A stretch of DNA of 64,000 bases, from positions 32,001 through 96,000 of the forward strand of contig CAWKAR010000045.1 of assembly GCA_963847625.1 (NCBI GenBank). The letters run 5' to 3'. Under the pieces are notes generated by a model. The model searched no databases and was not told where the DNA came from. It saw only the letters and a program-made list of their open reading frames with translations. Shown here piece by piece: positions 31,601 through 46,043 of the stretch. The translations under genes were made by a program, and so were the position numbers. Position 1 is the stretch's first letter. The number at the start of each line of letters is the position of its first letter. The DNA comes from a candidate division FCPU426 bacterium. Its GTDB lineage: Bacteria > Oederibacteriota > Muellerivitia > Muellerivitales > Muellerivitaceae.

Positions 31601-32966
31601 GACGCCAACGGCAACCGATACCACCACGGGAACCACTTCGCCCACGCCGACTTTCACGATCACCTCAACCAGTACGCAAACTCCAACATCGACAAGGACG
31701 AACACATCCACCAATACGCCCACGAATACGGCTACATCCACGCTTACCCCGACAAGGACGAACACTCTGACCAACACGCCGACGGCGACGATCACTCATA
31801 CCCCGACGATGACGCCAACGGCAACCGATACCACTACGGGAACCACTTCACCCACGCCGACTTTCACGATCACCTCAACAAGTACGCAAACTCCAACATC
31901 GACAAGGACGAACACATCCACCAATACGCCCACGAATACGGCTACATCCACGCTTACCCCGACAAGGACGAACACTCTGACCAACACACCGACGGCGACG
32001 CTCACTCATACCCCGACGGTGACGCCAACGGCAACCGATACCACTACGGGAACCACTTCACCCACGCCGACTTTCACGATCACCTCAACAAGTACGCAAA
32101 CTCCAACATCGACAAGGACGAACACATCCACCAATACGCCCACGAATACGGCTACATCCACGCTTACCCCGACAAGGACGAACACTCTGACCAACACACC
32201 GACGGCGACGCTCACTCATACCCCGACGGTGACGCCAACGGCAACCGATACCACTACGGGAACCACTTCGCCCACGCCGACCTATACAATCACCTCAACC
32301 AGTACGCAAACTCCAACATCGACAAGGACGAACACATCCACTAATACGCCCACAAATACGGCTACATCCACGCTTACCCCGACAAGAACGAACACGCTGA
32401 CCAACACACCGACGGCGACGATCACTCATACCCCGACGGTGACGCTAACGGCAACCGATACCACTACGGGAACCACTTCGCCCACGCCGACTTTCACGAT
32501 CACCTTAACTGCTACTCAAACTCCCACACTTACGATATCTTCCACGTCGACTCCAACGTCCACGTTGGGGCTTCCGACACCCACGGTTACTAACACCCCG
32601 CTTAATACGTATACCTCGACGCCAACTTCAACCCCGACTTCCACACCTCCGTCCTATATGACCGTGACTACGACACTGACCCCGGTCACGAACACCGCCC
32701 TGCGCGTGTATCCCAATCCCGCGGATGGCACGGAACCGGTCACTATCAGGCTTCCGTATTATTCGGGGCTTTCGGATGTCAAAATTCAAATCTTCACCAT
32801 TGCATTCCGGAAAGTTCAGGAAAAAGTTTATCCCTCTCAGGTCTGGGGGCTCATCCCCATCCAACTCGTGGATATTTGGAACAAACCCCTGGCGAGCGGC
32901 CTTTATTATGTTGTGGTCATAACGAATGAAGGCCGAAGTGTGGCGAAGTTGCTGATCATTCGGTAA
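28638..32966 (+). CDS. Secreted expansin-like (DPBB + CBM63-like) protein with about 1000-aa Thr/Pro-rich stalk and T9SS-like C-terminal domain
   Basis: [31 protein letters not shown] expansin-type pattern; repeat stalk; YPNP...LASGLYY...KLLIIR tail. Confidence 0.75.
30180..30752 (+). repeat. Coding tandem repeats of 96 bp and 60 bp ([18 protein letters not shown]...)
   Basis: AC(C/T)AATACCCCTGTAAATACGG recurs at 96-bp spacing (e.g. 30252, 30348). Confidence 0.85.
30781..32504 (+). repeat. Coding tandem repeat, 8 full units of 210 bp (70 aa) plus a partial unit
   Basis: CCAxxACGGGAACCACTTC starts at 30781, 30991, 31201, 31411, 31621, 31831, 32041, 32251 and 32461. Confidence 0.95.
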
Positions 32967-32992: not shown

Positions 32993-33125
32993 AAAAAACC
33001 AATAAAACTGCCCTTTTAATGCCTATTTATTTTTGGATTAAATCGGCCCTTTTGCCGTCTAGTGAGTATGGAAAGAATCCCCCTAATATAAAAATCGTGA
33101 GAAAATTATCTATATCTTGCTCGCT
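32993..33125 (+). promoter_or_regulatory. Duplicated upstream region of SBBP gene 1 (homologous to 39111-39240)
   Basis: AAAAAACCAATAAAACTGCCCTTTTAATGC...TTTTGGATTAAATC.GCCC...GCCGTCTAG shared with the region upstream of 39256. Confidence 0.7.
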
Positions 33126-33137
33126 ATGGGCGGACTC

Positions 33138-36101
33138 ATGATTCTGATGAAAATATTTCGAAATAGGTTACATCTTTTAAATGCAGGTCTATTTGCCTGC
33201 GTCATCGCGGTATTTGGAATGGGCTTAGTCTCCACAAACAAAAATAATCCTTCCCTTATTTCGCAGAAATCCCATGCTTCTTCCAAAGCCCAACTTGATG
33301 CAGGCACTCGATTAAAACTCAACCAGAATTATGGACATATCCCGCTTTACTTCGAACCCAACGAAGGCCAAACCGATCCCCAAGTCAAATTTATTTCCAG
33401 GGGAAGCGGCTACACCCTCTTTATTACGCCCGCTGAAGCGGTGTATGTATTGAAACGTGGAGATTCCAATCACTCCCTAAACAAGTTTAAAGGTTTTGAC
33501 ACTAAATTTCGAACTCCTAAGTCTTCTCTCCAAACTAATCCACCCGATGTTTTACGTCTGAGATTAGAAGGAGGTAACCGCCTAGCAGAATTCGAGGGGA
33601 TGGAAGAAGCGGAAGGGAAGAGCAATTATTTTATAGGGAACGATCCCAACAAATGGCATACGAATATTCCTAATTACACAAAAGTGAGGATGAAGGAGGT
33701 CTTTCCCGGAATTGATATGGAATATTACGGCGAACAGCGAAAACTAGAGTACGACTTTGTGGTGAAGCCGGGCGCAGACCCAAGCGTCATTGGCCTCAGC
33801 TATGAGGGCGCCAAGAATGCGGAAGTAGATGGGCAAGGGAACCTGTTGTTCCACATGGCCCAAGGGGATGTGGCATTCAAGGCGCCGGTGATTTACCAGA
33901 AGAGAATGAAAAATGGAGAATGGACAATTGAAAATGAAAAGATAGAAGGCCGTTACTCGTTAAAAGCGGATGGGAAAATCGGATTTGAAACGGGGAACTA
34001 TGACAAAACCCTTCCCCTGGTAATCGATCCCCAATTGGATTATTCGACATTCTTGGGTGGAAGCGGTGGCGATGAAGGTTATGCCATCGCTGTGGATGGG
34101 TCGGGGGACGCGTATGTGACCGGTTGTTCCTATTCAACGAATTTTCCCACGACCAGCGGAGCTATTCAGACGGTTAACAACGGATATACTAATGTTTTTG
34201 TGACGGAGCTTAATCCCTCTGGAAGCGCATTGATTTATTCAACCTATCTGGGAGGGAGCGCACAGGATTATGGTTATGGCATCGCGGTGGATGGGTCGGG
34301 GAACGCTTATATCACGGGGCGAATAGCTTCCAAGGATTTTCCCACTACCAGTGGAGCCTTTCAAACGGTGCATGGCGCAGACGGCCCCTATAACGACGCT
34401 TGTGTTGTAAAACTTAATTCCTCTGGAAGCGCCGTGATCTATTCGACGTATCTGGGCGGGAATGGGGATGATTGTGGTTTTGGCATCGCATTGGATGGGT
34501 CGGGAAACGCTTATGTGACTGGATATGCGCAATCAACGAATTTCCCAACGACCAGCGGGGCCTATCAGACGGCATTGGGCGGCACAAACGCTATGAACGT
34601 TTTTGTGTCAGAATTGAATGCAACGGGAAGCGCCCTGGTCTATTCGACTTATTTAGGCGGGAGCGGAAGCGTTTATGGCGATATTGGCCAAGGCATAGTA
34701 TTGGACGGGTCGGGGAATGTTTATGTGACAGGTGCTGCGGCTTCTCAAAATTTTCCCACAACTAGTGGGGCCTATCAAACGGTTTATGATAGTGGCGGGA
34801 ATGATGCATTTGTGGCGAAACTGAAACTGGCGGGCGGCGGGGCGAGTGACTTGATTTATTCTACCTATCTAGGCGGGAATAACTGGGATCAAGGCAATGG
34901 CATCGCGTTGGATGGGTTCGGGAACGCTTATGTAGTTGGCTATACAATATCAACAAATTTTCCTACGACCAGTGGAGCCTTTCAGACGGCTAGAGGTGGA
35001 ACGAATGGGAATTGTTATAACGTTTTTGTCACGGAGTTGAACCCCTCATTAAGCGCCTTGGTATATTCGACCTATTTGGGCGGGTACAATCCCGATGGCG
35101 ATTTTGGATTTGCCATTGCCGTAGATTCGGACGGTGATGCATATGTGACGGGATTGACCTCTGGAAATTTCCCCATAACAAGTGGTGCTTATCAAACGAC
35201 TTTTGAAGGTGGCATACCCAATCCCTGGCCAAGTGACGTTTTTGTGACGGAATTAAATGCCACGGGGAGTGCTCTGATCTATTCGACTTATTTAGGCGGT
35301 GTCAGGGACGATTCCGGCCAAGGCATAGCATTGGATGGGTCGGGTAATGTTTATGTGACTGGATATGCAGGCTATAATTTTCCTACTACCAGTGGGGCGT
35401 ATCAGACGGTTTTAGGTGTCTCTCCGAACGTATTTATAGCAAAGTTGGACAATAGCGATTTTTATACACCCACAATTACACCATGGCCGGCAGGTGTTCC
35501 TACCTATACTTCTACCAATACACCAACAATAACGAACACTCCCACAATTACCAAGACTCCGACTTTAACCCTAACTCCCACGCCCACTGCTTCCACCCTG
35601 CCCGGCGTACCGACGGCTACCTACACAAGCATATGCTTTCCTATTACCTGTACACCGACGCCTACACTAACACCCGGCAGTCCGTCGGCTACTCCAACCT
35701 TGACAAACACACCAACTGTTACTAATACACCTACGGTAACTCTTACGCTAACAATGACCAATATTCCCCCCCCGACAAACACCATAACGCCTACATTAAT
35801 ATTTCCTCCTTCCTGCTCCGAGTTCTCCGTCTCGAAAAATACGTTTTTCCCGTCCAACGGGCCAGTATCGATTTATGTTTCGTACTGTCAGTACCCAGGT
35901 GCCTTTTCCTTGGGGATTTATAATTCCGCTGGGGAGCACATTAAAACCCTAGATGCGCGACATTTGGAAGCACCCATTATCGCTTCTTACCTTTGGGACG
36001 GACGGAACAAATACGGTGATCCCTGCGCCAGCGGGGTCTATATTCTTTACCTCGTCGAACCCTATAACCGGCAAATCAAAAGAGTGCTTCTTTTAAAGTA
36101 A
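33138..36101 (+). CDS. SBBP (beta-propeller) repeat secreted protein 1 with Thr/Pro linker and FlgD-like C-terminal domain
   Basis: [12 protein letters not shown]-domain, repeated YSTYLGG...[24 protein letters not shown], and WDGRNKYGDPCASGVY tail. Start set by parallel with paralogue 3 (MILMK). Confidence 0.88.
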   Translation: MILMKIFRNRLHLLNAGLFACVIAVFGMGLVSTNKNNPSLISQKSHASSKAQLDAGTRLKLNQNYGHIPLYFEPNEGQTDPQVKFISRGSGYTLFITPAEAVYVLKRGDSNHSLNKFKGFDTKFRTPKSSLQTNPPDVLRLRLEGGNRLAEFEGMEEAEGKSNYFIGNDPNKWHTNIPNYTKVRMKEVFPGIDMEYYGEQRKLEYDFVVKPGADPSVIGLSYEGAKNAEVDGQGNLLFHMAQGDVAFKAPVIYQKRMKNGEWTIENEKIEGRYSLKADGKIGFETGNYDKTLPLVIDPQLDYSTFLGGSGGDEGYAIAVDGSGDAYVTGCSYSTNFPTTSGAIQTVNNGYTNVFVTELNPSGSALIYSTYLGGSAQDYGYGIAVDGSGNAYITGRIASKDFPTTSGAFQTVHGADGPYNDACVVKLNSSGSAVIYSTYLGGNGDDCGFGIALDGSGNAYVTGYAQSTNFPTTSGAYQTALGGTNAMNVFVSELNATGSALVYSTYLGGSGSVYGDIGQGIVLDGSGNVYVTGAAASQNFPTTSGAYQTVYDSGGNDAFVAKLKLAGGGASDLIYSTYLGGNNWDQGNGIALDGFGNAYVVGYTISTNFPTTSGAFQTARGGTNGNCYNVFVTELNPSLSALVYSTYLGGYNPDGDFGFAIAVDSDGDAYVTGLTSGNFPITSGAYQTTFEGGIPNPWPSDVFVTELNATGSALIYSTYLGGVRDDSGQGIALDGSGNVYVTGYAGYNFPTTSGAYQTVLGVSPNVFIAKLDNSDFYTPTITPWPAGVPTYTSTNTPTITNTPTITKTPTLTLTPTPTASTLPGVPTATYTSICFPITCTPTPTLTPGSPSATPTLTNTPTVTNTPTVTLTLTMTNIPPPTNTITPTLIFPPSCSEFSVSKNTFFPSNGPVSIYVSYCQYPGAFSLGIYNSAGEHIKTLDARHLEAPIIASYLWDGRNKYGDPCASGVYILYLVEPYNRQIKRVLLLK

Positions 36102-36139
36102 AAACCCCCTTCGAGCTATAATTGGTCTAGAGAATAATC

Positions 36140-38935
36140 ATGCCGAAAGTATCCCGGAATCATATGCGGCTGTTGAACACCGGTCTATTTACCTGCGTCT
36201 TATTGGTTTTTGGTATGGGTTTAGTCTCCACAGGCCGAAACAATTCTTCCCCCGCCCAGCAAAAAAACCATGCTTCTTCCAAAGCCCAACTTGATGCAGG
36301 CACTCGATTAAAACTCAACCAGAATTACGGAAAAATCCCACTTTACTTTGAACCCAACGAAGGACAATACGATCCCCAAGTCAAATTCATTTCCCGGGGA
36401 AGCGGCTACACCCTCTTTATTACGCCCGCTGAAGCGGTGTATGTATTGAAACGTGGAGATTCCAATCATTCACCCCGGCAATCTACCCTGAGTAAACGAA
36501 GTGCATCGAAGGGCTCCTCACTCCTAACTGCTTCCCCCGAGGTTTTGCGCCTGAGGCTCGAGGGCGGGAATCGCATAGCTTTTTTCGAAGGGATGGAAGA
36601 AGCGGAAGGGAAAAGCAATTATTTCATCGGGAATGACCCATCCAAATGGCGAACTAACATCACCCACTATGCCAAGGTGAACTTGAAAGAGGTCTATCCC
36701 GGTATTGACATGGTGTATTACGGTTCACAGCAAAAGCTGGAATACGACTTTATGGTAAAACCCGGTGCGGATCCAAAAGAAATTAGGCTGAAAATTGAGG
36801 GTGCGGAGAGTTCCAATGTGAATGACTCGGGCAACCTTCAAATGAGTGTCGGCGGCTGCCAAGTGGTTTTCAAAGCACCTGCTATTTATCAGGAGGACCG
36901 CAACGGAAAAGTAACCATCATGGGAAAATATGTAAAGACCGGTAGTAACGAATTAGGTTTCGAGGTGAAGGGATATGATCATTCAATACCATTGGTGATC
37001 GATCCAGTTTTGGATTATTCCACCTTCCTTGGCGGGACCGCGAGCGAAGGAGCCAATGCCATCGCGGTGGATGGGTCGGGGAACGCTTATGTTACGGGAG
37101 AGACCGGGTCCATTAATTTTCCCACGACCGCCGGGGCCTACCAGACGGCTTCTGGCGACATTTTTGTGACGGAGCTAAATGCAAATGGAAGCGCCCTGGT
37201 CTATTCGACCTTTCTGGGCGGGATCGGAGGGAATGAAGCCTTTGGCATCGCGGTGGATGGGTTGGGTAACGCTTATGTGACGGGGCAGACCAGCGGAAGT
37301 TTCCCTACGACCAGTGGGGCTTATCAGACGATTTTCGGTGCTGGTACTTATGACGCCTTTGTGACCAAACTCAATCCGTCAGGTAATACACTCCTTTATT
37401 CAACTTATCTGGGCGGAAGCGGTTGGGATCAAGGCGATGGGATCGCGGTGGATTCAAGCGGGAGCGCCTACGTGACGGGTTATACCTATTCCACCGATTT
37501 CCCCACCACAACGGGTGCTTACCAAACCACTTCGGGAGGAACCTGGGACGCCTTCATCACCAAGTTGAATGCGGCGGGCACGGCCTTGGTCTATTCCACC
37601 TATCTGGGCGGAAGCTACATTGACTATGGTTATGGAATTGCTGTGGATTCAAGCGGAAACGCCTACGTAACGGGTACTACTGCGTCCACCGATTTTCCCA
37701 CCACGGCTGGGGTTTACCAAACAACTTTTGGGGGAAGCTGGGACGTCTTTGTGGCCAAGCTGAATGCGGCGGGTACGGTCTTAGTCTATTCCACGTACCT
37801 AGATGGGAGTTCAAGTGAAGAAGGTTATGGAATAACCGTGGATTCAAGTGGGAACGCCTACGTGACTGGAAGTACGGAATCAACGAATTTCCCAACAACC
37901 AGTGGGGCCTATCAGACGAATTATGGCGGCAATATTGATGCGTTTGTGACGAAGTTGAATAACACGGGAAGCGCCTTGTTGTATTCAACCTATTTGGGCG
38001 AGGGTAATGAGGATCATGGAAATGCCATCGCGGTGGATGGCTCTGGAAACGCATATGTGACGGGATATACGCAATCCACCAATTTCCCCACGACCAGTGG
38101 GGCTTATCAGACGGTTTTTGGAGGGAATCAGGATGCTTTTATGATGGAGCTGAATGCCGGGGGTAGCAACCTGATCTATTCGACATACTTGGGCGGGGGT
38201 GCGTCCGAATCCGGTCTGGGCATTGCGGTGGATGGGTCGGGGAACGCCTACGTGACGGGGTATACGCAATCCACCAATTTCCCCACGACCAGTGGGGCCT
38301 ATCAGACGGCTTTTGGAGGAACCTGTGACGTCTTCGTGGCAAAGCTTTCTTTTCCCACCCCAACACCGACACCTACCATGACTCCCACACCGACGGCGAC
38401 AGACAGCCCGACGAACAGTTCGACTTCGACCCCGAGTAGTACACCCACGCCCACGGCTACATACAGTTCGACATTGACGAATACCCTGACCAACACACCC
38501 ACCCTAACAAACACCTCCACTGCCACGGGTACTTATACAATGACGAATACACTGACCCCCACATACACCCCGACGCTGACCAGCACCTCCACGCAAACGA
38601 TGACCCCAACAGTTTCAAATATCCCGACCTCGACATCACTTCCATCCTGCTCTGGGTTCTCCATCTCGAAGAACGCGTTTTTCCCCTCCAATGGGCCGGT
38701 CTCGATCTATGTTTCCTATTGCAAGTATCCGGGCGATTATTCCTTAAAGGTTTATAACTCCGCCGGGGAACACGTCAAAACGCTGGACGAGAGGCATTTA
38801 GAGGCACCAGTAGTGGCTTCTTACCTTTGGGATGGCAGGAATAAATATGGTGATCCCTGCGCCAGTGGCGTCTATATTTTGTACCTCGTGGAGCCTTATG
38901 ACCGTGAGACCAAAAGGGTGCTTCTTTTAAGGTAG
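36140..38935 (+). CDS. SBBP repeat secreted protein 2
   Basis: Same architecture; C-terminal domain nearly identical to that of paralogue 1. Confidence 0.88.
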   Translation: MPKVSRNHMRLLNTGLFTCVLLVFGMGLVSTGRNNSSPAQQKNHASSKAQLDAGTRLKLNQNYGKIPLYFEPNEGQYDPQVKFISRGSGYTLFITPAEAVYVLKRGDSNHSPRQSTLSKRSASKGSSLLTASPEVLRLRLEGGNRIAFFEGMEEAEGKSNYFIGNDPSKWRTNITHYAKVNLKEVYPGIDMVYYGSQQKLEYDFMVKPGADPKEIRLKIEGAESSNVNDSGNLQMSVGGCQVVFKAPAIYQEDRNGKVTIMGKYVKTGSNELGFEVKGYDHSIPLVIDPVLDYSTFLGGTASEGANAIAVDGSGNAYVTGETGSINFPTTAGAYQTASGDIFVTELNANGSALVYSTFLGGIGGNEAFGIAVDGLGNAYVTGQTSGSFPTTSGAYQTIFGAGTYDAFVTKLNPSGNTLLYSTYLGGSGWDQGDGIAVDSSGSAYVTGYTYSTDFPTTTGAYQTTSGGTWDAFITKLNAAGTALVYSTYLGGSYIDYGYGIAVDSSGNAYVTGTTASTDFPTTAGVYQTTFGGSWDVFVAKLNAAGTVLVYSTYLDGSSSEEGYGITVDSSGNAYVTGSTESTNFPTTSGAYQTNYGGNIDAFVTKLNNTGSALLYSTYLGEGNEDHGNAIAVDGSGNAYVTGYTQSTNFPTTSGAYQTVFGGNQDAFMMELNAGGSNLIYSTYLGGGASESGLGIAVDGSGNAYVTGYTQSTNFPTTSGAYQTAFGGTCDVFVAKLSFPTPTPTPTMTPTPTATDSPTNSSTSTPSSTPTPTATYSSTLTNTLTNTPTLTNTSTATGTYTMTNTLTPTYTPTLTSTSTQTMTPTVSNIPTSTSLPSCSGFSISKNAFFPSNGPVSIYVSYCKYPGDYSLKVYNSAGEHVKTLDERHLEAPVVASYLWDGRNKYGDPCASGVYILYLVEPYDRETKRVLLLR

Positions 38936-39083
38936 GCATGTTTCCGGGAATGGCACCCTCTCTTGGGATTTGAAGGATATGGACGGTACCCCTGTGGCCG
39001 ACGGACTTTATTACCTCCGGGTGAAGGCGGTTGAGGGGGGGACCACGACCGTGAAAATCCTGAAAGTCCTCGTTCTGCGCTGA
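38936..39083 (+). pseudogene. Orphan fragment of a T9SS-like C-terminal domain
   Basis: 148 bp with 14 mismatches (by eye) to 42219-42366; reads [47 protein letters not shown]. Confidence 0.85.
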
Positions 39084-39255
39084 GCGGAAATTCAGCTCGC
39101 GAATTCTCCCAAAAAACCAATAAAACTGCCCTTTTAATGCTTATTTTTTTTGGATTAAATCTGCCCTTTTGCCGTCTAGAGGGTGTGGAAAGAGACAACC
39201 CTAACAGCCAAATCGTGGGAAAATATCCTATATCTGGCTCACCCTGGACGGGCAA

Positions 39256-42200
39256 ATGATCCTGATGAAGATATCGCGCAATAGATTGCGTCTTTTAAAT
39301 GCAGGTCTATTGGCCTGCGTCATTCTGTTATTTGGAATGGGGTTGGTCTCCACAAGCCGAAATGGTTCTTCTCACGCCCCGAAAGAATCTAATATCTCTT
39401 CCAAAGTTGCTCAGCCGAATCAATCAGCGCTCATGAAACTTAATCAGAATTATGGACATATCCCGCTTTACTTCGAGCCCAACGAGGGACAATTCGATCC
39501 CCAAGTGAAGTTTCTCTCCCGGGGAAGTGGATATTCCCTATTCATCACGCCCGCCGAAGCGGTGTTTGTCCTAAAGCATAGCGAGCCTAAAGATTTTTCG
39601 AATAAAGGTGGAAGACTTGGTCGTAAATTCCCAATTCCTAATTCCTCATTCCTAATTACCAAAACTTCACACCCAACTGTTCCGCCCGATGTTTTGAGAT
39701 TGAGATTGGAAAATGGAAATAGGTTGGCTGAATTCGAGGGAATGGAAAAGGCAGTAGGGAAGAGCAATTACTTTATCGGGAATGACTCATCCAAGTGGCA
39801 CACCAATATACCCAACTATACCAAGGTAAAGATGAAGGATGTCTATCCCGGGGTCGACATGGTGTATTACGGCAATCAACGTAAGTTGGAATACGATTTC
39901 GAGGTAAAGCCAGGGGCGGACCCAAGTGCCATTAATCTCAGTTACGAAGGCGCCAAGAACGCTGAAGTGGACGGCCAAGGGAATCTGATATTCCACATGG
40001 AGAAAGGGGATGTGGCTTTCAAAGCGCCTGTAGCCTACCAAAAAAAAATGAAGAATGGAGAATGGACAATTGAAAACGAAAAAATAGAAGGCCGTTATTC
40101 ATTAAAAGCTGATGGGAAAATTGGTTTTAAGATTGGAAACTATGACAAAACCCTTCCTCTGGTGATCGACCCCCAATTGGATTATTCAACTTATTTGGGT
40201 GGGAATATCGAAAATGAGGGCAGTGGCATCGTGGTGAATGGATCGGGGAATGCTTATGTGACAGGTTGGTCTATGGGAGATTTCCCCACAACAAGCGGAG
40301 CCTTTCAGACGGCTTTGGATGGTGGTATGGATGCTTTTGTGGCGGAGATAAGTGCTGATGGAAGCGCCTTGGTCTATGCGACCTATCTGGGTGGCAGCGG
40401 GGGTGCTCAAGGCAATGGCATCGCGTTGGATGGGTCGGGAAACGCTTATGTGGTTGGAAGTGCCGGCGCAAATTTTCCCACAACCAATGGAGCCTATCAA
40501 CCAGCTTATCAGAGTTTATATAGCCAATTGAATGCTTTTGTGACGAAACTGAATACTTCGGGAAGCGCCTTGGTCTATTCGACCTATCTTGGCGGGAGCG
40601 GGGAATCTAATCAAGGGGATGTTGGCACTGGCGTTGCGGTGGATGGGTCAGGAAATGCTTATGTGTCGGGTCATACGTTTTCACCGAATTTCCCCACTAC
40701 CGGCGGGGCCTATCAGACAGCTTTAGGTGTCAGCGGTGATATTTTTATTACGAAACTGAATGCCTCAGGAAGCAACCTTATTTATTCGACTCTTCTGGGT
40801 GCGAACGGTGGCGGTGTGTGTAATGGCATCGCTGTGGATGGATCGGGGAACGCTTATGTGACGGGCTGGGTAGATGACATAGATTACCCCATAACCAGTG
40901 GGGCTTATCAGACGGATTTTGGTGGTGGGGGTATTGACGCTTTTTTGACAGAGTTTAATGCAACTGGAAGCTCCTTGGTCTATTCGACCTATCTGGGTGG
41001 TAGCGAGGACACTCTTGGCAATGGCATCGCTGTGGATTCCTCGGGAAATGCCTACGTTACAGGATACACTGGAGAGGGGTTTCCAACGAATAGTGGGGCC
41101 TTTCAGACGGCTTATGGCGGCAATACCGACGTTTTTGTGGTGAAGTTGAATCCGGCGGGTGACGGGGCCAGCGACTTGATCTATTCAACCTATTTGGGAG
41201 GAAATGGGGACGATCAAGGAAACGCCATCGCGGTGGATGGGTTGGGGGACGCTTATGTAACGGGCTTTACGAATTCAACGGATTTCCCCACGACCAGTGG
41301 CGCCTTTCAAACGTCTTTTCAGACGTCCGCAGGTGACATCCACGGAAATACTAACGCTTTTATGACGGAACTGAATCCTTCGGGAAGCTTCCTGATTTAT
41401 TCGTCCTATCTTGGCGGGAGTGGGGACGTGTACGGGGGTGATCTAGCCAATGGAATTGCATTGGATGGCTTAGGAAACGTTTATGTGACAGGAGAAACAG
41501 AATCATCCGATTTCCCGACTACTAACGGCGCCTTTCAAACGTCTAATGGTGGCGCATCTGTTGACGGTTTTGTTACAAAGTTTGACGTGAGTGATTTTTA
41601 TACACCCACGCCCTGGCCGACGGGCGTTCCCACATATACTTTTACATCCACACCTACCCTTGCGTTTACACCAACGCCCACCTCTACCCCAACTCCCACC
41701 ATGACAAACACGCCAACCTATACTTCGGGTGTTTTAACTTTTACACCGACTAACACGCCAACTTCCACCGCGACAAACACATCCACGAAAACGACAACCC
41801 CTACAATCACATTGACACCGACAATTACTCCCACTGATACTCCGCCTCCTTCACCAGACCCTACTTGGACAGTAACAACTTCTCCAACTTTCACCCCGAC
41901 AAATACCTCAATCAACACATCTACGAGGACGATGACGCCAACAACGACCCCAACGCCCACCCGCAAAGCTACGTGCACAAACACACCCACTTCAACGGCC
42001 ACCCCAACATGCACTGTTGGTGTGATACCCGCCACTAACACGCCAACACCCACAGCAACACGGACCTCGACTGTGACAGGTGTGGTTATCAGCCTGTCTT
42101 ATCCAAATCCTGTTAAAGGCGCAGGGCCGGTTTCCATAAATGTCCAAGGGCCGCCAGGAACTAACTTTATCTGTGACGTCTTCACGACGGCCTTCCGAAA

Positions 42201-42366
42201 AGTGGCCAGCGCTACATGGCTTGTTTCCGGGAACGGCACCCTCTCATGGGACTTGAAGGATATGGACGGCACCCCTGTGGCCGACGGGCTTTATTACCTC
42301 CGGGTAAATGCGGTTGCGGGGGGAACCACGACGGTGAAAATCCTGAAAGTCCTCGTTATCCGCTAA
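39256..42366 (+). CDS. SBBP repeat secreted protein 3 with YPNP-type C-terminal domain
   Basis: Same N-domain and SBBP repeats; tail YPNP...FTTAFRKV...VADGLYY...KVLVIR. Confidence 0.88.
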
Positions 42367-42562
42367 CGTTCTTTTGCCAACCGATGCGGTTTTAGAACCC
42401 CAAATCCCTAATACCTCCATGGGGTTAACTTTTAACCTGTTTTGCCTCTTTTTTTGTAGAACCCCAATAAATCCCACTTTTAAAATACCACGAAGCAGAT
42501 ACCCATACCTGGGGTTAGTAGTCCTGCCCGCAGGGGACCGCGAACCCAGTGCAGGGGACCGG

Positions 42563-42974
42563 GAACCTAGTAGCAGAACCCGGTGAACCTAGTAGCAGAT
42601 TCCGGGGAACCTAGTAGCAGAACCCGTGAACCTAGTAGCAGATTCCGAGGTACCTAGTAGCAGATACCGGGGAATCTAGTAGCAGAACCCGGTGAACCTA
42701 GTAGCAAATTTCGGGGTACTTAGTAGCAGATACCGGGGAACCTAGTAGCAGAACCCGGTGAACCTAGTAGCAGAACCCGTGAACCTAGTAGCAGATTCCG
42801 GGGTACCTTGTAGCAAAACCCGTGAACCTAGTAGCAGATTCCGAGGTACCTAGTAGCAGATACCGGGGAATCTAGTAGCAGAACCCGGTGAACCTAGTAG
42901 CAGATTTCGGGGTACTTAGTAGCAGATACCGGGGAATCTAGTAGCAGAACCCGGTGAACCTAGTAGCAAATTTC
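42563..42974. repeat. Non-coding tandem array of 21-22-bp direct repeats, units 1-19 (unit 19 cut by IS256)
   Basis: Consensus G(A/T)A(C/T)(C/T)TAGTAGCA(G/A)A(A/T)(C/T/A)(C/T)CG(G/A)(G/T); units start at 42563, 42585, 42607, 42628 ... 42956. Confidence 0.95.
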
Positions 42975-44329
42975 GGTAGTGTATTTTTGGGGGGTGTAAA
43001 AAGAAGCGGGCGTAACATGGTGTTTGTCTAGAACGCCATATCCTTTTTGTGAAAGGAAGTTACGCCCATGAAGAATATACACCTAGCCTTACAGGCCTTG
43101 GCAAGAGAGAAAACTCAAGCCTGGGTGAAATCTGTGGTTGGAAGCCGTGAGGTCGGCGAATGGGTAGGAGAAGCCCTGAATCAACAACTTTCGGAGGCTT
43201 TCAACGCCCAGTTGAGGAAAGAACGGGATGAAGCGTTGAATCGCCAGCCATATGAAAGGCAGGAAGGAAGCCGGTATCGCAATGGGTTCAAGCGGATCCT
43301 AGTTGCTGGATTTCTGGGACCTTTGGTGCTGAAAAAGCCAGTTTTGAGGAAAGGCGGATTTGTTTCGGAAACTCTGACGGCATTGAGAGCTGGAAGCCAA
43401 GCCTTGGTGGGATTTCTGGGAATGAAGTTCTGGCTAAAGGGGGCTTCCACCCGGTCGGTGGCGGCAGGGCTAAACGAGGCCTTTGGAACTAAGCTGACAG
43501 CCAATCACGTTAGCCAGATGACCAATGCCTTAAAACCTACCCTGGAAGCCTGGGCTAAACGGCTATTACCCACCGGGATTCAATACTTGTACTTGGATGC
43601 CCTTTACCTGACGGTCAGGCGACAGGAAGCCGGTGTGAAACAAGCTTTGCTGGTGGCCATCGGGGTGGATGGGAACCTGAAGAGGCATTTTCTGGGGTAC
43701 ATGGTGGGAGACCGTGAAAGTGAGTCGGCCTGGGAAGCCATGTTGGAAGACTTGTTGAACAGAGGCTTAGACAGAAAAAGCTTACGAATGGTGGTATCCG
43801 ACGCCCACGGTGGAATTGTCGCGGCGGTGAAAAATCGTCTTGGAATCCCCCATCAATTATGCTTGGTACACAAGATGGAAAACGTCCGGTGTCGAGTGGC
43901 CCAGAAGGACAGAAAGGCATTCATGGCTGATTTCAAAGCGGTGTATTGGGCCGAAAGTCGAGAGAACGCCTTGGTGGCACTAGGAAGTCTCAAGGCTAAG
44001 TGGGCCAAAACCTATCCCAAAGCAGTGGAGATGGCAGAGGAAAAATTCGACTCCTATACGCAGTTTTTCCAGGAAGACCGGAAGTTTTGGAAGATTACCC
44101 GCACCAGCAACCTAATCGAACGGCTTAACGAGGAGTTAAGGAAAAGGCTGAGGCCAGCGGGGATGATGCAGAACGAGCTGGAGATCGCCAAGTTGGTGTG
44201 GGGGGTAACCGAAACCCAACAACAAAATTGGAACAAGACTAAAGCCTACACCTCAAGAAGGGAGGCGGAGGTTCAAGCTGCTTGATTAAGACGCCCGTGG
44301 AAATTTACACCCAAAATATTGACGCAGGG
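42975..44329 (+). mobile_element. IS256-family insertion sequence inserted in the repeat array
   Basis: Imperfect terminal IRs (GGTAGTGT...GGGTGTAAA / TTTACACCC...GACGCAGGG); target duplication CAAATTTC at 42967-42974 and 44330-44337. Confidence 0.88.
43068..44285 (+). CDS. IS256 (Mutator-family) transposase
   Basis: YRNG, YLYLDA, VVSDAHGG, HQLCLVH and RTSNLIERLNEELRKR motifs. Confidence 0.93.
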   Translation: MKNIHLALQALAREKTQAWVKSVVGSREVGEWVGEALNQQLSEAFNAQLRKERDEALNRQPYERQEGSRYRNGFKRILVAGFLGPLVLKKPVLRKGGFVSETLTALRAGSQALVGFLGMKFWLKGASTRSVAAGLNEAFGTKLTANHVSQMTNALKPTLEAWAKRLLPTGIQYLYLDALYLTVRRQEAGVKQALLVAIGVDGNLKRHFLGYMVGDRESESAWEAMLEDLLNRGLDRKSLRMVVSDAHGGIVAAVKNRLGIPHQLCLVHKMENVRCRVAQKDRKAFMADFKAVYWAESRENALVALGSLKAKWAKTYPKAVEMAEEKFDSYTQFFQEDRKFWKITRTSNLIERLNEELRKRLRPAGMMQNELEIAKLVWGVTETQQQNWNKTKAYTSRREAEVQAA

Positions 44330-44450
44330 CAAATTTCGGGGTACTTAGTAGCAGATACCGGTGAACCTAGTAGCAGATTCCGGGGAACCTAGTAGCAGAT
44401 ACCGGGGAATCTAGTAGCAGAACCCAGTGAACCTAGTAGCAGATTTCGGG
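44330..44450. repeat. Continuation of the 22-bp array (end of unit 19 plus units 20-24)
   Basis: Units start at 44341, 44363, 44385, 44407 and 44429 with the same consensus. Confidence 0.95.
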
Positions 44451-44489
44451 ACACCTATTGGCATATTGGCTTTTTAAAAGGAGTTTTAT

Positions 44490-46043
44490 ATGGCTGGTAT
44501 AAAACAAGAATCCCTATCTTGGATCGATCAAATTAAAGACCTAAAAGCCTATCTTAAGAAAAAGCCCTCCGCTAAAAGAATTGAGCTTAGAGAAGCTCTC
44601 AAACTTAGCGATGGTCGAATCACCATTCTTTACTCCATTGAAACCTGTTTCGACGAACTTGCCTTGAAAAAGGTTCGTCAGGCGGCAAAAGGGGCATCCC
44701 CCTTTACCCTGTCCTCAAACGCCGCCCTGGCCTTGGCAAAGTTGAAAGGGAGAGTCCAGGATTTTCCCAAGATATTCCACCAGGTTTTGGATTTTGTTTT
44801 GGCCCAAAGATTGATTCCGATGAAAATCGAAGCCCTGGTGGAGTGGATTATAGAAGGTAAACCAATTAGTGGATTCGACCCCACCCGGGTCAAGAGAAAG
44901 AGCCCGAAAGGCCCCTCCTTGGGACCCAGGGAGGTTCGGGAAGAAGCCGCCCCAATAGGGAATAAATCCGATGTCCAAACGCCAGGGGCGGCCGTTGGCC
45001 GGGAGGGGGAATTACCGCCCCAAAAGCCGGGGGAAAAACCGGACTGGAAGGGCATTAGGGAAGCTATTTACGGGGCCGCGACTTTGGTGTTCATCATATT
45101 GTTCGCGAGGTGCGCGTGGCATGATTTTAAAACCTGGGAGGGCGCGCAAACCCATTCTGATGCCGCGGCCACGCCGGCAGTCGCCAATAATCCAAGCGGT
45201 TCGAATGAGGCCACGAATGCAGGAAGTAAGTTAGAAGTTAGGAGTGAGGAGTTAGGAGTTAAGGCGAACAACCAACCTACCTCAATTCAAAATTCGGGCG
45301 CGCCAGCGCCCGTTGTTGCTTGGAATGCTTCCCTCGAAACCGAAACCCAAATGGACAATGAACTTTTCCCCTTGCCCGATTACTGCGTCATCAAGCCCAT
45401 CCTGCCCTTGCCGGCGGTGAATATGGACGCGGTAAAAGCCGGGAATTTATTGGCTCTTTTCCAGGATGTCGACAAATACTCGGTCTGGTACGGGAACGAG
45501 AGAGTGACCGTCGAATCAGCCCCCGTCAACCCCGCCTTCCTGGCTCTTTTTTTCAAGGACAAGGGACCGGTGGAAATAAATTGGAATACCCTGAAAGCCA
45601 TTCATTGCGATGAAGCGCAGGTGTTCGGGGAACACACCGGGGAGACCCTGTACCAATGCGGGTTGGTTTCGTCCGGCTTGGAAAAGGCCGTCGAAATCGA
45701 ATGTACCGCGCTTGATGATTTCAACAACCTGGTATCGGCCCTGTTTTTTTGGGCCAAGAACGTGACGCCGTCGGGACTGCCTTACCTTCACCAGGGAACC
45801 GTGTTCGACAGCCAAGCGCTGGTCAAGGTGGTATGGGCCGGAAGCCCGGCGGACAAGGCGGGTTTGAGACTAAACGACATGGTTTGGGGATTGGACCAGG
45901 ACGGCGACCGACAACAAAAACCCATCGCCGTGGAAAAGGGTTTGGATGCCCTCGAAGCGGGAAGGCATGCGCTATACGTGATCCGGGGAGGGAGGGTGTC
46001 CCCGGAAACGCCCAGGACGAGGCTTGAGTTGATGGTTCCATAA
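44490..46043 (+). CDS. Hypothetical single-pass membrane protein: ParB/Spo0J-like HTH, TM helix, extracytoplasmic domain, PDZ-like domain
   Basis: RBS AAGGAG; SLSWIDQ...ELREALKLS..RIT...LSSNAALALAKL...IEALV resembles the ParB DNA-binding region; TM IYGAATLVFIILFA; V..GSPADKAGLRLND.V PDZ motif. Confidence 0.6.
   Translation: MAGIKQESLSWIDQIKDLKAYLKKKPSAKRIELREALKLSDGRITILYSIETCFDELALKKVRQAAKGASPFTLSSNAALALAKLKGRVQDFPKIFHQVLDFVLAQRLIPMKIEALVEWIIEGKPISGFDPTRVKRKSPKGPSLGPREVREEAAPIGNKSDVQTPGAAVGREGELPPQKPGEKPDWKGIREAIYGAATLVFIILFARCAWHDFKTWEGAQTHSDAAATPAVANNPSGSNEATNAGSKLEVRSEELGVKANNQPTSIQNSGAPAPVVAWNASLETETQMDNELFPLPDYCVIKPILPLPAVNMDAVKAGNLLALFQDVDKYSVWYGNERVTVESAPVNPAFLALFFKDKGPVEINWNTLKAIHCDEAQVFGEHTGETLYQCGLVSSGLEKAVEIECTALDDFNNLVSALFFWAKNVTPSGLPYLHQGTVFDSQALVKVVWAGSPADKAGLRLNDMVWGLDQDGDRQQKPIAVEKGLDALEAGRHALYVIRGGRVSPETPRTRLELMVP

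Follow-up and report, generated by a model that had tools for sequence, protein, structure and literature searches.

Proteins that hold bacterial DNA at the membrane include RacA, an origin-to-membrane anchor, and Noc, whose membrane attachment is an amphipathic helix. Here, we describe a gene and a tandem array that may serve a similar end, found in a 64,000-nucleotide stretch of a candidate division FCPU426 bacterium (positions 32,001 to 96,000 of contig CAWKAR010000045.1, assembly GCA_963847625.1), which is called the window throughout; the assembly is called the host genome. The gene encodes P0001, a predicted membrane-spanning protein that has the DNA-binding fold of ParB without its CTPase domain, and it is preceded by an array of short direct repeats. 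Relatives of the same build are likewise paired with phased arrays, and one-stranded mosaics of such arrays occur across the host genome. We lean, though only a little, towards the explanation that a lineage-specific family of predicted membrane-spanning, CTPase-less ParB proteins tethers its own and dispersed arrays to the inner membrane.

ParB normally forms a dimer on a palindromic site and builds up through CTP-driven clamping (10.1101/2025.10.10.680097). From the ParABS (type Ia) system the present one takes the ParB-type helix-turn-helix (HTH), and it lacks the CTPase fold, a linked ParA and a palindromic parS. Noc, with its NBS sites in Bacillus, is an orphan ParB paralogue with altered DNA specificity that links sites on the chromosome to the membrane (PMC7383237; 10.1101/2025.10.10.680097), as is predicted here, and it has the same DNA-binding fold as P0001. 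Noc retains its CTPase clamp and recognises palindromic sites; the present proteins have no CTPase and a predicted membrane-spanning helix, their presumed sites are phased direct repeats, and as many as a dozen paralogues with different cores occur in one genome. The full-length relatives of the family have the Noc model TIGR04285 as their best match, at E 1e-17 and far below its cut-off; P0001 itself has no match to it, nor the CTPase clamp and membrane-binding N-terminus of Noc. RicO and RocS combine an N-terminal DNA-binding domain with membrane attachment and bring DNA motifs to the envelope (10.64898/2026.03.06.710092; PMC11500499), but they are single proteins that attach through an amphipathic part or an adaptor and have their motifs near the origin, unlike the ParB-type HTH and tandem phased arrays found here. 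By analogy, the family would work like Noc or RicO (10.64898/2026.03.06.710092).

Other known systems resemble parts of the arrangement. SopB of plasmid F has a ParB-type HTH and lies beside a tandem array, sopC, of 43-bp units (PMC3177203); the sopC units contain a 16-bp inverted repeat and SopB partners SopA, whereas here the cores are one-stranded at ~21.3 bp, ParA is missing and a membrane helix is predicted. ParT of plasmid SCP2 is also a ParB-like protein without a CTPase domain, but it has a C-terminal dimerisation domain, binds a single parS made of an 18-bp inverted repeat, moves along DNA by diffusion and activates ParA (10.1101/2024.05.08.592561); in P0001 the HTH without CTPase is followed by a membrane helix, PH and PDZ, with no ParA. 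Regulators of the ToxR/CadC type share the order of cytoplasmic HTH, membrane helix and outer domain (PMC10269533), and P0001, judged by hydropathy, has their architecture of DNA-binding domain and helix in one chain; the arrays here are far longer than operators, and ParB is absent from the main text of that survey of transmembrane regulators, as far as it was available. Bacterial repeats of constant length (20-23 and 52 nt) occur as several families in one genome that agree in period but not in sequence (PMC8161180; PMC6749651), and the periods of 21-22, 43 and 52-53 all occur in the present arrays. No binding protein is named for those repeats in the available text, whereas here a candidate reader gene adjoins. 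The whole arrangement is outside ParABS, Noc and ParT, and among the named systems it fits only the broad transmembrane-regulator architecture. Its arrays fit the description of bacterial satellites, with several non-coding tandem families per genome of the same period and different sequence. The parts have known analogues in Noc, RicO, sopC and transmembrane regulators. No description of the architecture was found in the literature searched, which covered few subscription journals; the supplements of surveys of ParB folds and transmembrane regulators could list members.

The preliminary description of the window had recognised by eye a ParB-type HTH at the start of P0001, no CTPase domain ahead of it, one transmembrane helix, an extracytoplasmic middle part and a PDZ-like end. 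These features are borne out (Table 1), the helix by hydropathy and the PDZ by a below-cut-off Pfam match together with HtrA/Deg structures, and the fold of the middle part is now seen as PH-like. An AlphaFold model of residues 1-140, built from 32 homologues (predicted local distance difference test, pLDDT, 82), matches the DNA-binding domains of Noc, ParB, Spo0J, KorB and SopB in Foldseek, the ten best rows being Noc, ParB or Spo0J at a probability of ~1 and E 0.05-0.2. VIA-align gives Z 7.8 for ParB (6s6h), 7.7 for KorB (8qa8) and 7.2 for Spo0J (1vz0) over 93-102 residues. These values are modest for a helical domain, but the sequence of full-length relatives bridges the gap to ParB. Pfam ParB_N (PF02195) lies ahead of the same DNA-binding domain in seven of the ten such relatives scanned, and a profile of them finds Noc at E 6e-29 and Spo0J at E 5e-26. 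A PDB sequence search with the CTPase-less profile returned nothing relevant; the ParB link came from folds and full-length relatives. In P0001, PF02195 was not found and the open reading frame (ORF) starts at the HTH; Pfam, NCBIfam and PADLOC hold no family covering its N-terminal domain. Residue 41, aligned via the full-length relatives, falls at the position of the Noc Q and of ParB R173, a specificity residue (PMC7383237). The C-terminal 248 residues are modelled at pLDDT 94 as a PH-like domain followed by PDZ, and the ESM Atlas gave no usable match for residues 275-435. An in-frame 7-bp tandem repeat in the gene's linker (45229-45261) also occurs in many unrelated contigs of the peat runs.

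The array was correctly described as 24 direct repeats with a near-invariant core, ending 39 bp before the ATG at 44490 (last unit to ~44450). Units are spaced by 21-22 bp, and the exact 8-bp core is present in 23 of 24; an 11-mer allowed one mismatch at most has 23 matches, against 0.13 expected by chance. All 24 core hits lie on the forward strand and none on the reverse, and core columns are conserved in 23-24 of the 24 units while linker columns fall to 9. The array is not contiguous: an insertion sequence (IS) of the IS256 family, not mentioned earlier, separates 19 units (42561-42968) from 5 (44337-44450). An 8-bp target duplication flanks the element, and the two parts are thus a single array split by insertion. 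The element has the Mutator-type transposase, terminal inverted repeats and target duplication (8-9 bp) of its family. Contigs from other sequencing runs stop at the same element boundaries, and array halves joined without the element were not seen in four DNA runs, whose cover is patchy. Recent internal duplications are present, with a period of 196 bp and 96% identity. Part of the leader ahead of the array is 78% identical to the upstream region of a second paralogue (on C3), and no consensus promoter site was found on the + strand of the leader. Since the insertion leaves five units by the gene and parts it from the candidate promoter, expression of the gene may be altered here.

Table 1. 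Features of the P0001 locus, in window positions (AF2, AlphaFold2; TRF, Tandem Repeats Finder; C13, contig of another paralogue)
Feature	Position	Strand	Evidence
Non-coding leader common to other paralogue loci	42419..42555	+	88% identity to C13 paralogue upstream region
-10-like hexamer, candidate promoter, weak -35	42481-42486	+	score 12/17
Two 21-bp units of C13-paralogue upstream type (short foreign sub-array)	42530..42576	+	TRF period 21 x2.2; C13 array similarity
Left array part, 19 units	42561..42974	+	TRF, core matches
IS256-family insertion sequence within array, 1355 bp	42975..44329	+	8-bp target duplication
8-bp target duplication of IS256 element	42967-42974 and 44330-44337		
IS256 transposase, 405 aa	43068..44285	+	PF00872 E 1e-70; NCBIfam NF033543 E 2e-78
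Right array part, 5 units, then one degenerate core at 44456	44337..44450	+	
Gene for 517-aa membrane ParB-HTH protein P0001	44490..46043	+	
ParB/Noc-type DNA-binding domain, residues 1-135, no CTPase domain ahead	44490..44894	+	AF2 pLDDT 82; fold matches
Recognition helix, residues 39-50	44604..44639	+	alignment via full-length relatives
Predicted transmembrane helix, residues 192-210	45063..45119	+	Kyte-Doolittle 1.82 over 19 residues, hydropathy only
PH-like domain, residues ~311-430, predicted extracytoplasmic	45420..45779	+	AF2 pLDDT 94; PH-fold Z 7-9.5
PDZ domain	45792..46040	+	PF17820 E 0.008 (below cut-off); HtrA/Deg chains E 1e-5 to 1e-3

Relatives of P0001 fall into class A, in which the protein starts at the HTH, and class B, with ~100 extra N-terminal residues that form a recognisable ParB CTPase fold in nearly all cases and usually with a long tail. 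The two were compared with a single seed-free detector, a chain of at least five phased 8-mers upstream of the gene; the comparison was redone in this way because TRF had missed the degenerate array of one locus (L057). Chains of 5-24 8-mers precede the gene at 64 of 64 class A loci, none of 49 class B loci and none of 149 random host genes, the longest chain being at most three in class B and four before random genes. The upstream arrays for which the preliminary description had wished to test homologues are thus found at every class A locus. The 64 loci comprise 41 genomic and 23 metagenome-contig loci (54 non-redundant), three further metagenome loci being left out for missing upstream sequence, and the class B set is a sample of the matches (13 + 36 loci). 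Class A probably arose once and its members are kin, which makes the pairing one evolutionary event with long persistence and not 64 independent trials.

The core differs for almost every paralogue and the period is constant: of 522 site spacings, 428 fall at 20-23 bp (mean 21.3) and most of the remainder at 32-33 or 41-45 bp, and variants of 33, 43 and 52-53 bp are also present. In older arrays the cores stay fixed while the linkers drift. Arrays are one-stranded in 38 of 41 cases, and the cores do not form inverted repeats. At 10 of 39 loci the ~100 bp ahead of the first unit contain a near-consensus sigma-70 site, which none of 36 control stretches has. Units of 21-22 bp, recurring linkers and the lack of an Rfam CRISPR match set the arrays apart from CRISPR, in which identical repeats alternate with unique spacers of ~30-40 nt.

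The pairing of protein and array has therefore stood, but the picture of a single centromere- or iteron-like locus was too narrow, as arrays are found genome-wide. In the host genome 33 loci hold 41 phased arrays, all non-coding, which together cover 13 kb or 0.3% of the assembly. Many are mosaics of different paralogues' cores; one, at C27:278501-279756, contains sub-arrays matching three paralogue profiles together with further cores. Hits in the mosaics (n=566) number 500 on one strand versus 66 on the other, and spacings between different cores keep the ~10.5-bp period across junctions (73 spacings, Rayleigh R 0.65). Each of the seven host profiles also detects chains at a distance from its own gene (25, 8, 7, 4, 2, 1 and 1, the profile with 25 being the most degenerate and hence the most permissive), while 17 of 34 foreign profiles find no chains on the host genome and the best finds six. 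The most widespread array type, with 29 matches in the host (G000) and 25 in the genome G001, pairs with a protein of 219-228 aa that consists of the DNA-binding domain and a membrane helix only. Dispersed arrays lie in all gene contexts, beside unrelated genes; the preliminary description had set the same array beside unrelated genes as a refutation, and the occurrence of related arrays at many such sites points here to a genome-wide system of many paralogues. The downstream gene runs in the core direction at 25 of the 31 host loci with a called gene, and the core strand agrees with GC skew at 23 of 33 loci and with local coding bias at 25 of 33. In 200-kb samples per genome, with two gene-adjacent arrays removed, six dispersed arrays were found in 1.2 Mb of six class A genomes (3, 1, 1, 1, 0, 0) versus none in 0.8 Mb of four class-B-only genomes, which is suggestive only of dispersed arrays going with class A genomes. 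A dispersed array without an adjacent gene in G023 (L118:18057-18215) shares its core with the arrays that precede the class A genes in L199 and L200. Clustering near the origin was considered and is not convincing, with 5 of 33 loci on the parAB contig, which makes up 7% of the assembly.

Insertion elements are found in and around these arrays. All three host IS256 copies lie inside phased arrays (the window; G000 C50:81250; C3:149642), and three more IS256 flanks in runs X1, X3 and X4 resemble array sequence by eye; none of six relatives (79% identity) checked in G072, G073 and G075 lies within an array. Insertions may be attracted or sheltered by arrays. Genes named by eye as IS3- and IS30-like occur in or beside host arrays, and a hand tally on G001:C4 places five of nine IstB-like (IS21-type) matches no more than 3 kb from an array match.

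In the host genome (4.43 Mb, 94% complete), seven genes share the P0001-type N-terminus, and there is no full-length form. Across 99 genomes of the phylum, strong matches are confined to the host's family, where 8 of 30 other genomes have them, with as many as 11 copies apiece; additional genomes show weaker matches. Among 1.84 billion representative sequences there were 203 matches, 56 of them below 1e-30, and no match was found in viral contigs or plasmids. Among 56 CTPase-less proteins, 46 have a 19-residue window with a hydropathy of at least 1.6, on hydropathy only. PH-PDZ is absent from 14 of 37 paralogues, four of which are the DNA-binding domain and helix only. C-terminal regions unrelated to PH-PDZ are seen in class A L022, L025 and L052 (G022) and L047-L049, L053 and L054 (G016); six of these were scanned and gave no convincing Pfam match, which looks like swapping of the domains that follow the membrane helix. 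A wider class of orphan ParB proteins is full-length and long-tailed, in many cases with membrane helices (L021, L027-L029, L032-L036, L043-L046, L060-L095), and numbers up to about ten in a genome; changes in the CTP-binding motif are common among these proteins, and Gln occupies the R173 position in many, as it does in Noc. They are the likely ancestors of class A, and are a class undescribed in the papers searched. At three host loci (G000 C13:3600-5120; C34:107564-108872; C3:22635-24035), an insertion disrupts one paralogue close to its start, the array of another contains an IS, and one copy is without the N-terminal domain.

If each protein reads its own array, cores should follow the recognition helix, as the preliminary description had proposed. 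Recognition-helix similarity predicts core similarity over 41 loci with auto-aligned cores (partial rho 0.15, p 0.0005, controlling for the rest of the DNA-binding domain), and the best 8-residue windows start at residues 39-45. In a dinucleotide scan of residues 8-131 over 54 loci, columns 43, 41 and 45, all in the recognition helix, rank first, with a minimum p of 1e-7 against 3e-6 for the best of 60 permutations. Arg41 goes with an AC step in the core at 14 of 14 loci, and Asp, Asn or Ser41 at 0 of 17; the focus on the 3' half of the core was chosen after the data were seen. For L196 and L207, whose nearest helix is that of the window protein, the cores ranked the window core 1 and 6. Cores thus likely co-vary with the recognition helix, including the R173-equivalent, although the strength of the signal changes with the measure used and significance is lost under control for relatedness.

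In the proposed tethering, each paralogue would bind a short non-palindromic core of its own that recurs every two helical turns, and numerous copies held in the membrane would grip the DNA along one face. A clampless ParB domain fixed in the two-dimensional membrane could reach only that face, and sites every two turns would let many copies bind together; multivalent phased sites may in this way replace the lost CTP clamp. Such one-face binding would account for the loss of the CTPase along with the gain of arrays, for the direct repeats, for a fixed period with free linkers and for the phase kept in mosaics. Because the array often lies between a promoter-like site and the start codon, the gene-adjacent array may provide autorepression as well, which the order of promoter, array and gene at the 10 of 39 loci also suggests. 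The choice between tether and sensor, both put forward in the preliminary description, is not settled; the sensor is weakened, and we favour a structural role because so many paralogues lack PH-PDZ and the commonest array type pairs with a protein of domain and helix only. A tentative extension, which we hold to be possible but doubtful, is a combinatorial chromosome-to-membrane address code. The readers would be orthogonal, each with its phased satellite, and mosaics would be multi-reader docking strips laying the chromosome along the membrane; a ParB paralogue would have gained a membrane helix first, then lost the CTP clamp, then radiated into many readers.

Tethering could instead be a by-product of transcription control, which we consider rather unlikely but far from negligible: the proteins would be transmembrane regulators, with arrays as operators or roadblocks for their own and neighbouring genes and PH-PDZ as an envelope sensor. 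Their architecture is that of such regulators (PMC10269533), and the sigma-70 sites before first units, the downstream genes running in the core direction and the PDZ matches to HtrA/Deg chains are all in keeping with this. The paralogues without PH-PDZ, four of them reduced to domain and helix, and the dispersed arrays beside unrelated genes speak against it, and up to ~30 phased sites and multi-core mosaics would exceed what operators need. We judge it improbable that autoregulation is confined to each protein's own array, with the dispersed arrays neutral satellites spread by recombination and the module selfish or addictive. The patchy multi-copy distribution, the recent internal duplications, the insertion elements tolerated in arrays, the orphan cores and the arrays without a close partner would all suit that account. 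Against it stand the helical phase kept across core junctions with all cores on a common strand, and a dispersed array in G022 that, by eye, has drifted linkers and retains the local paralogue's core; the module has no mobility gene and no match in plasmids or viral contigs.

Two further explanations carry much less weight. Action of the arrays as RNA, as a leader or small RNA similar to type III toxin-antitoxin systems, where structured RNA repeats precede an RNase toxin, with the pairing reflecting RNA control of a membrane protein, seems very unlikely to us. The arrays do often lie between a promoter-like site and a start codon, and RNA roles have been proposed for Bacillus repeats (PMC8161180, in the text available), but there is no folding signal (z -0.40), no Rfam family (one chance match) and no PADLOC match for five proteins; the period equals two turns of B-DNA, and the partner protein, with its ParB-HTH, PH and PDZ, carries a double-stranded-DNA-binding fold. 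A centromere or iteron array serving partition or replication of an integrated element is extremely improbable. The ParB fold, and 43-bp units similar in length to those of F sopC (PMC3177203), recall such arrays, but the CTPase domain is missing, the cores are not inverted repeats, the 33 loci are spread across the assembly and a canonical parAB operon exists elsewhere in the host, on contig C27. A motif scan found no ParA-like gene within 18 kb of any of the seven paralogues (nearest 19 kb) and no ParA-like ORF on the window's contig, in line with the earlier report of no parA in the window.

Several observations count against tethering by paired readers. Two sampled genomes, G019 and G072, have no arrays in 200 kb each; some dispersed sub-arrays fit no host paralogue, by eye; and G001 has four matches to the window array type, while its best full-length homologue is only 35% identical. 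Ten of the 56 CTPase-less proteins have no clear hydrophobic helix, several of these being truncated. The system looks dispensable, since the class is patchy (8 of 30 other family genomes) and insertions are found at three of seven host loci. Replication polarity was considered and set aside: on a 1.6-Mb contig of G001, 10 of 17 arrays are on the presumed leading strand (hand tally; dnaA-based). For the co-variation, a second similarity measure gives a partial rho of 0.09 (p 0.04), and a third, over 54 loci, gives 0.056 (p 0.08) and peaks off the helix at residues 22-30 and 72-80. At 15 held-out loci the helix is hardly a better predictor of the core than the rest of the domain is, with median ranks of 8 and 14, respectively, of 39. 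Only 1-4 independent pairs lie on supported branches of a poorly resolved tree (quick method, 110 columns), and none of five tests on them is significant.

Elsewhere in the window, three tandem paralogous secreted proteins of 931-1036 aa are encoded at 33117-42366, the last with DUF7948, SBBP propeller repeats, a Thr/Pro linker and a weak FlgD-Ig end. Short CRISPR-like repeats follow a cas2-like ORF at G000 C14:16470-16846 (by eye).

Bacterial repeats of fixed length and free sequence (20-23 or 52 nt) have been called enigmatic, and a part in protein binding to the nucleoid has only been suggested in the available account (PMC8161180). Here such repeats sit before a candidate reader gene, which would be the first proposed for this unexplained class and opens the question to a gel-shift test. 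The ParB recognition code has so far been dissected on one pair, ParB and Noc (PMC7383237, in the portion available), and the 54 natural protein-site pairs provide a library for it. If the address code were true, constant-period bacterial satellites would be protein-binding scaffolds, a bacterial counterpart of lamina-type tethering. If tethering itself is true, the family would represent an undescribed way of organising the chromosome at the membrane.

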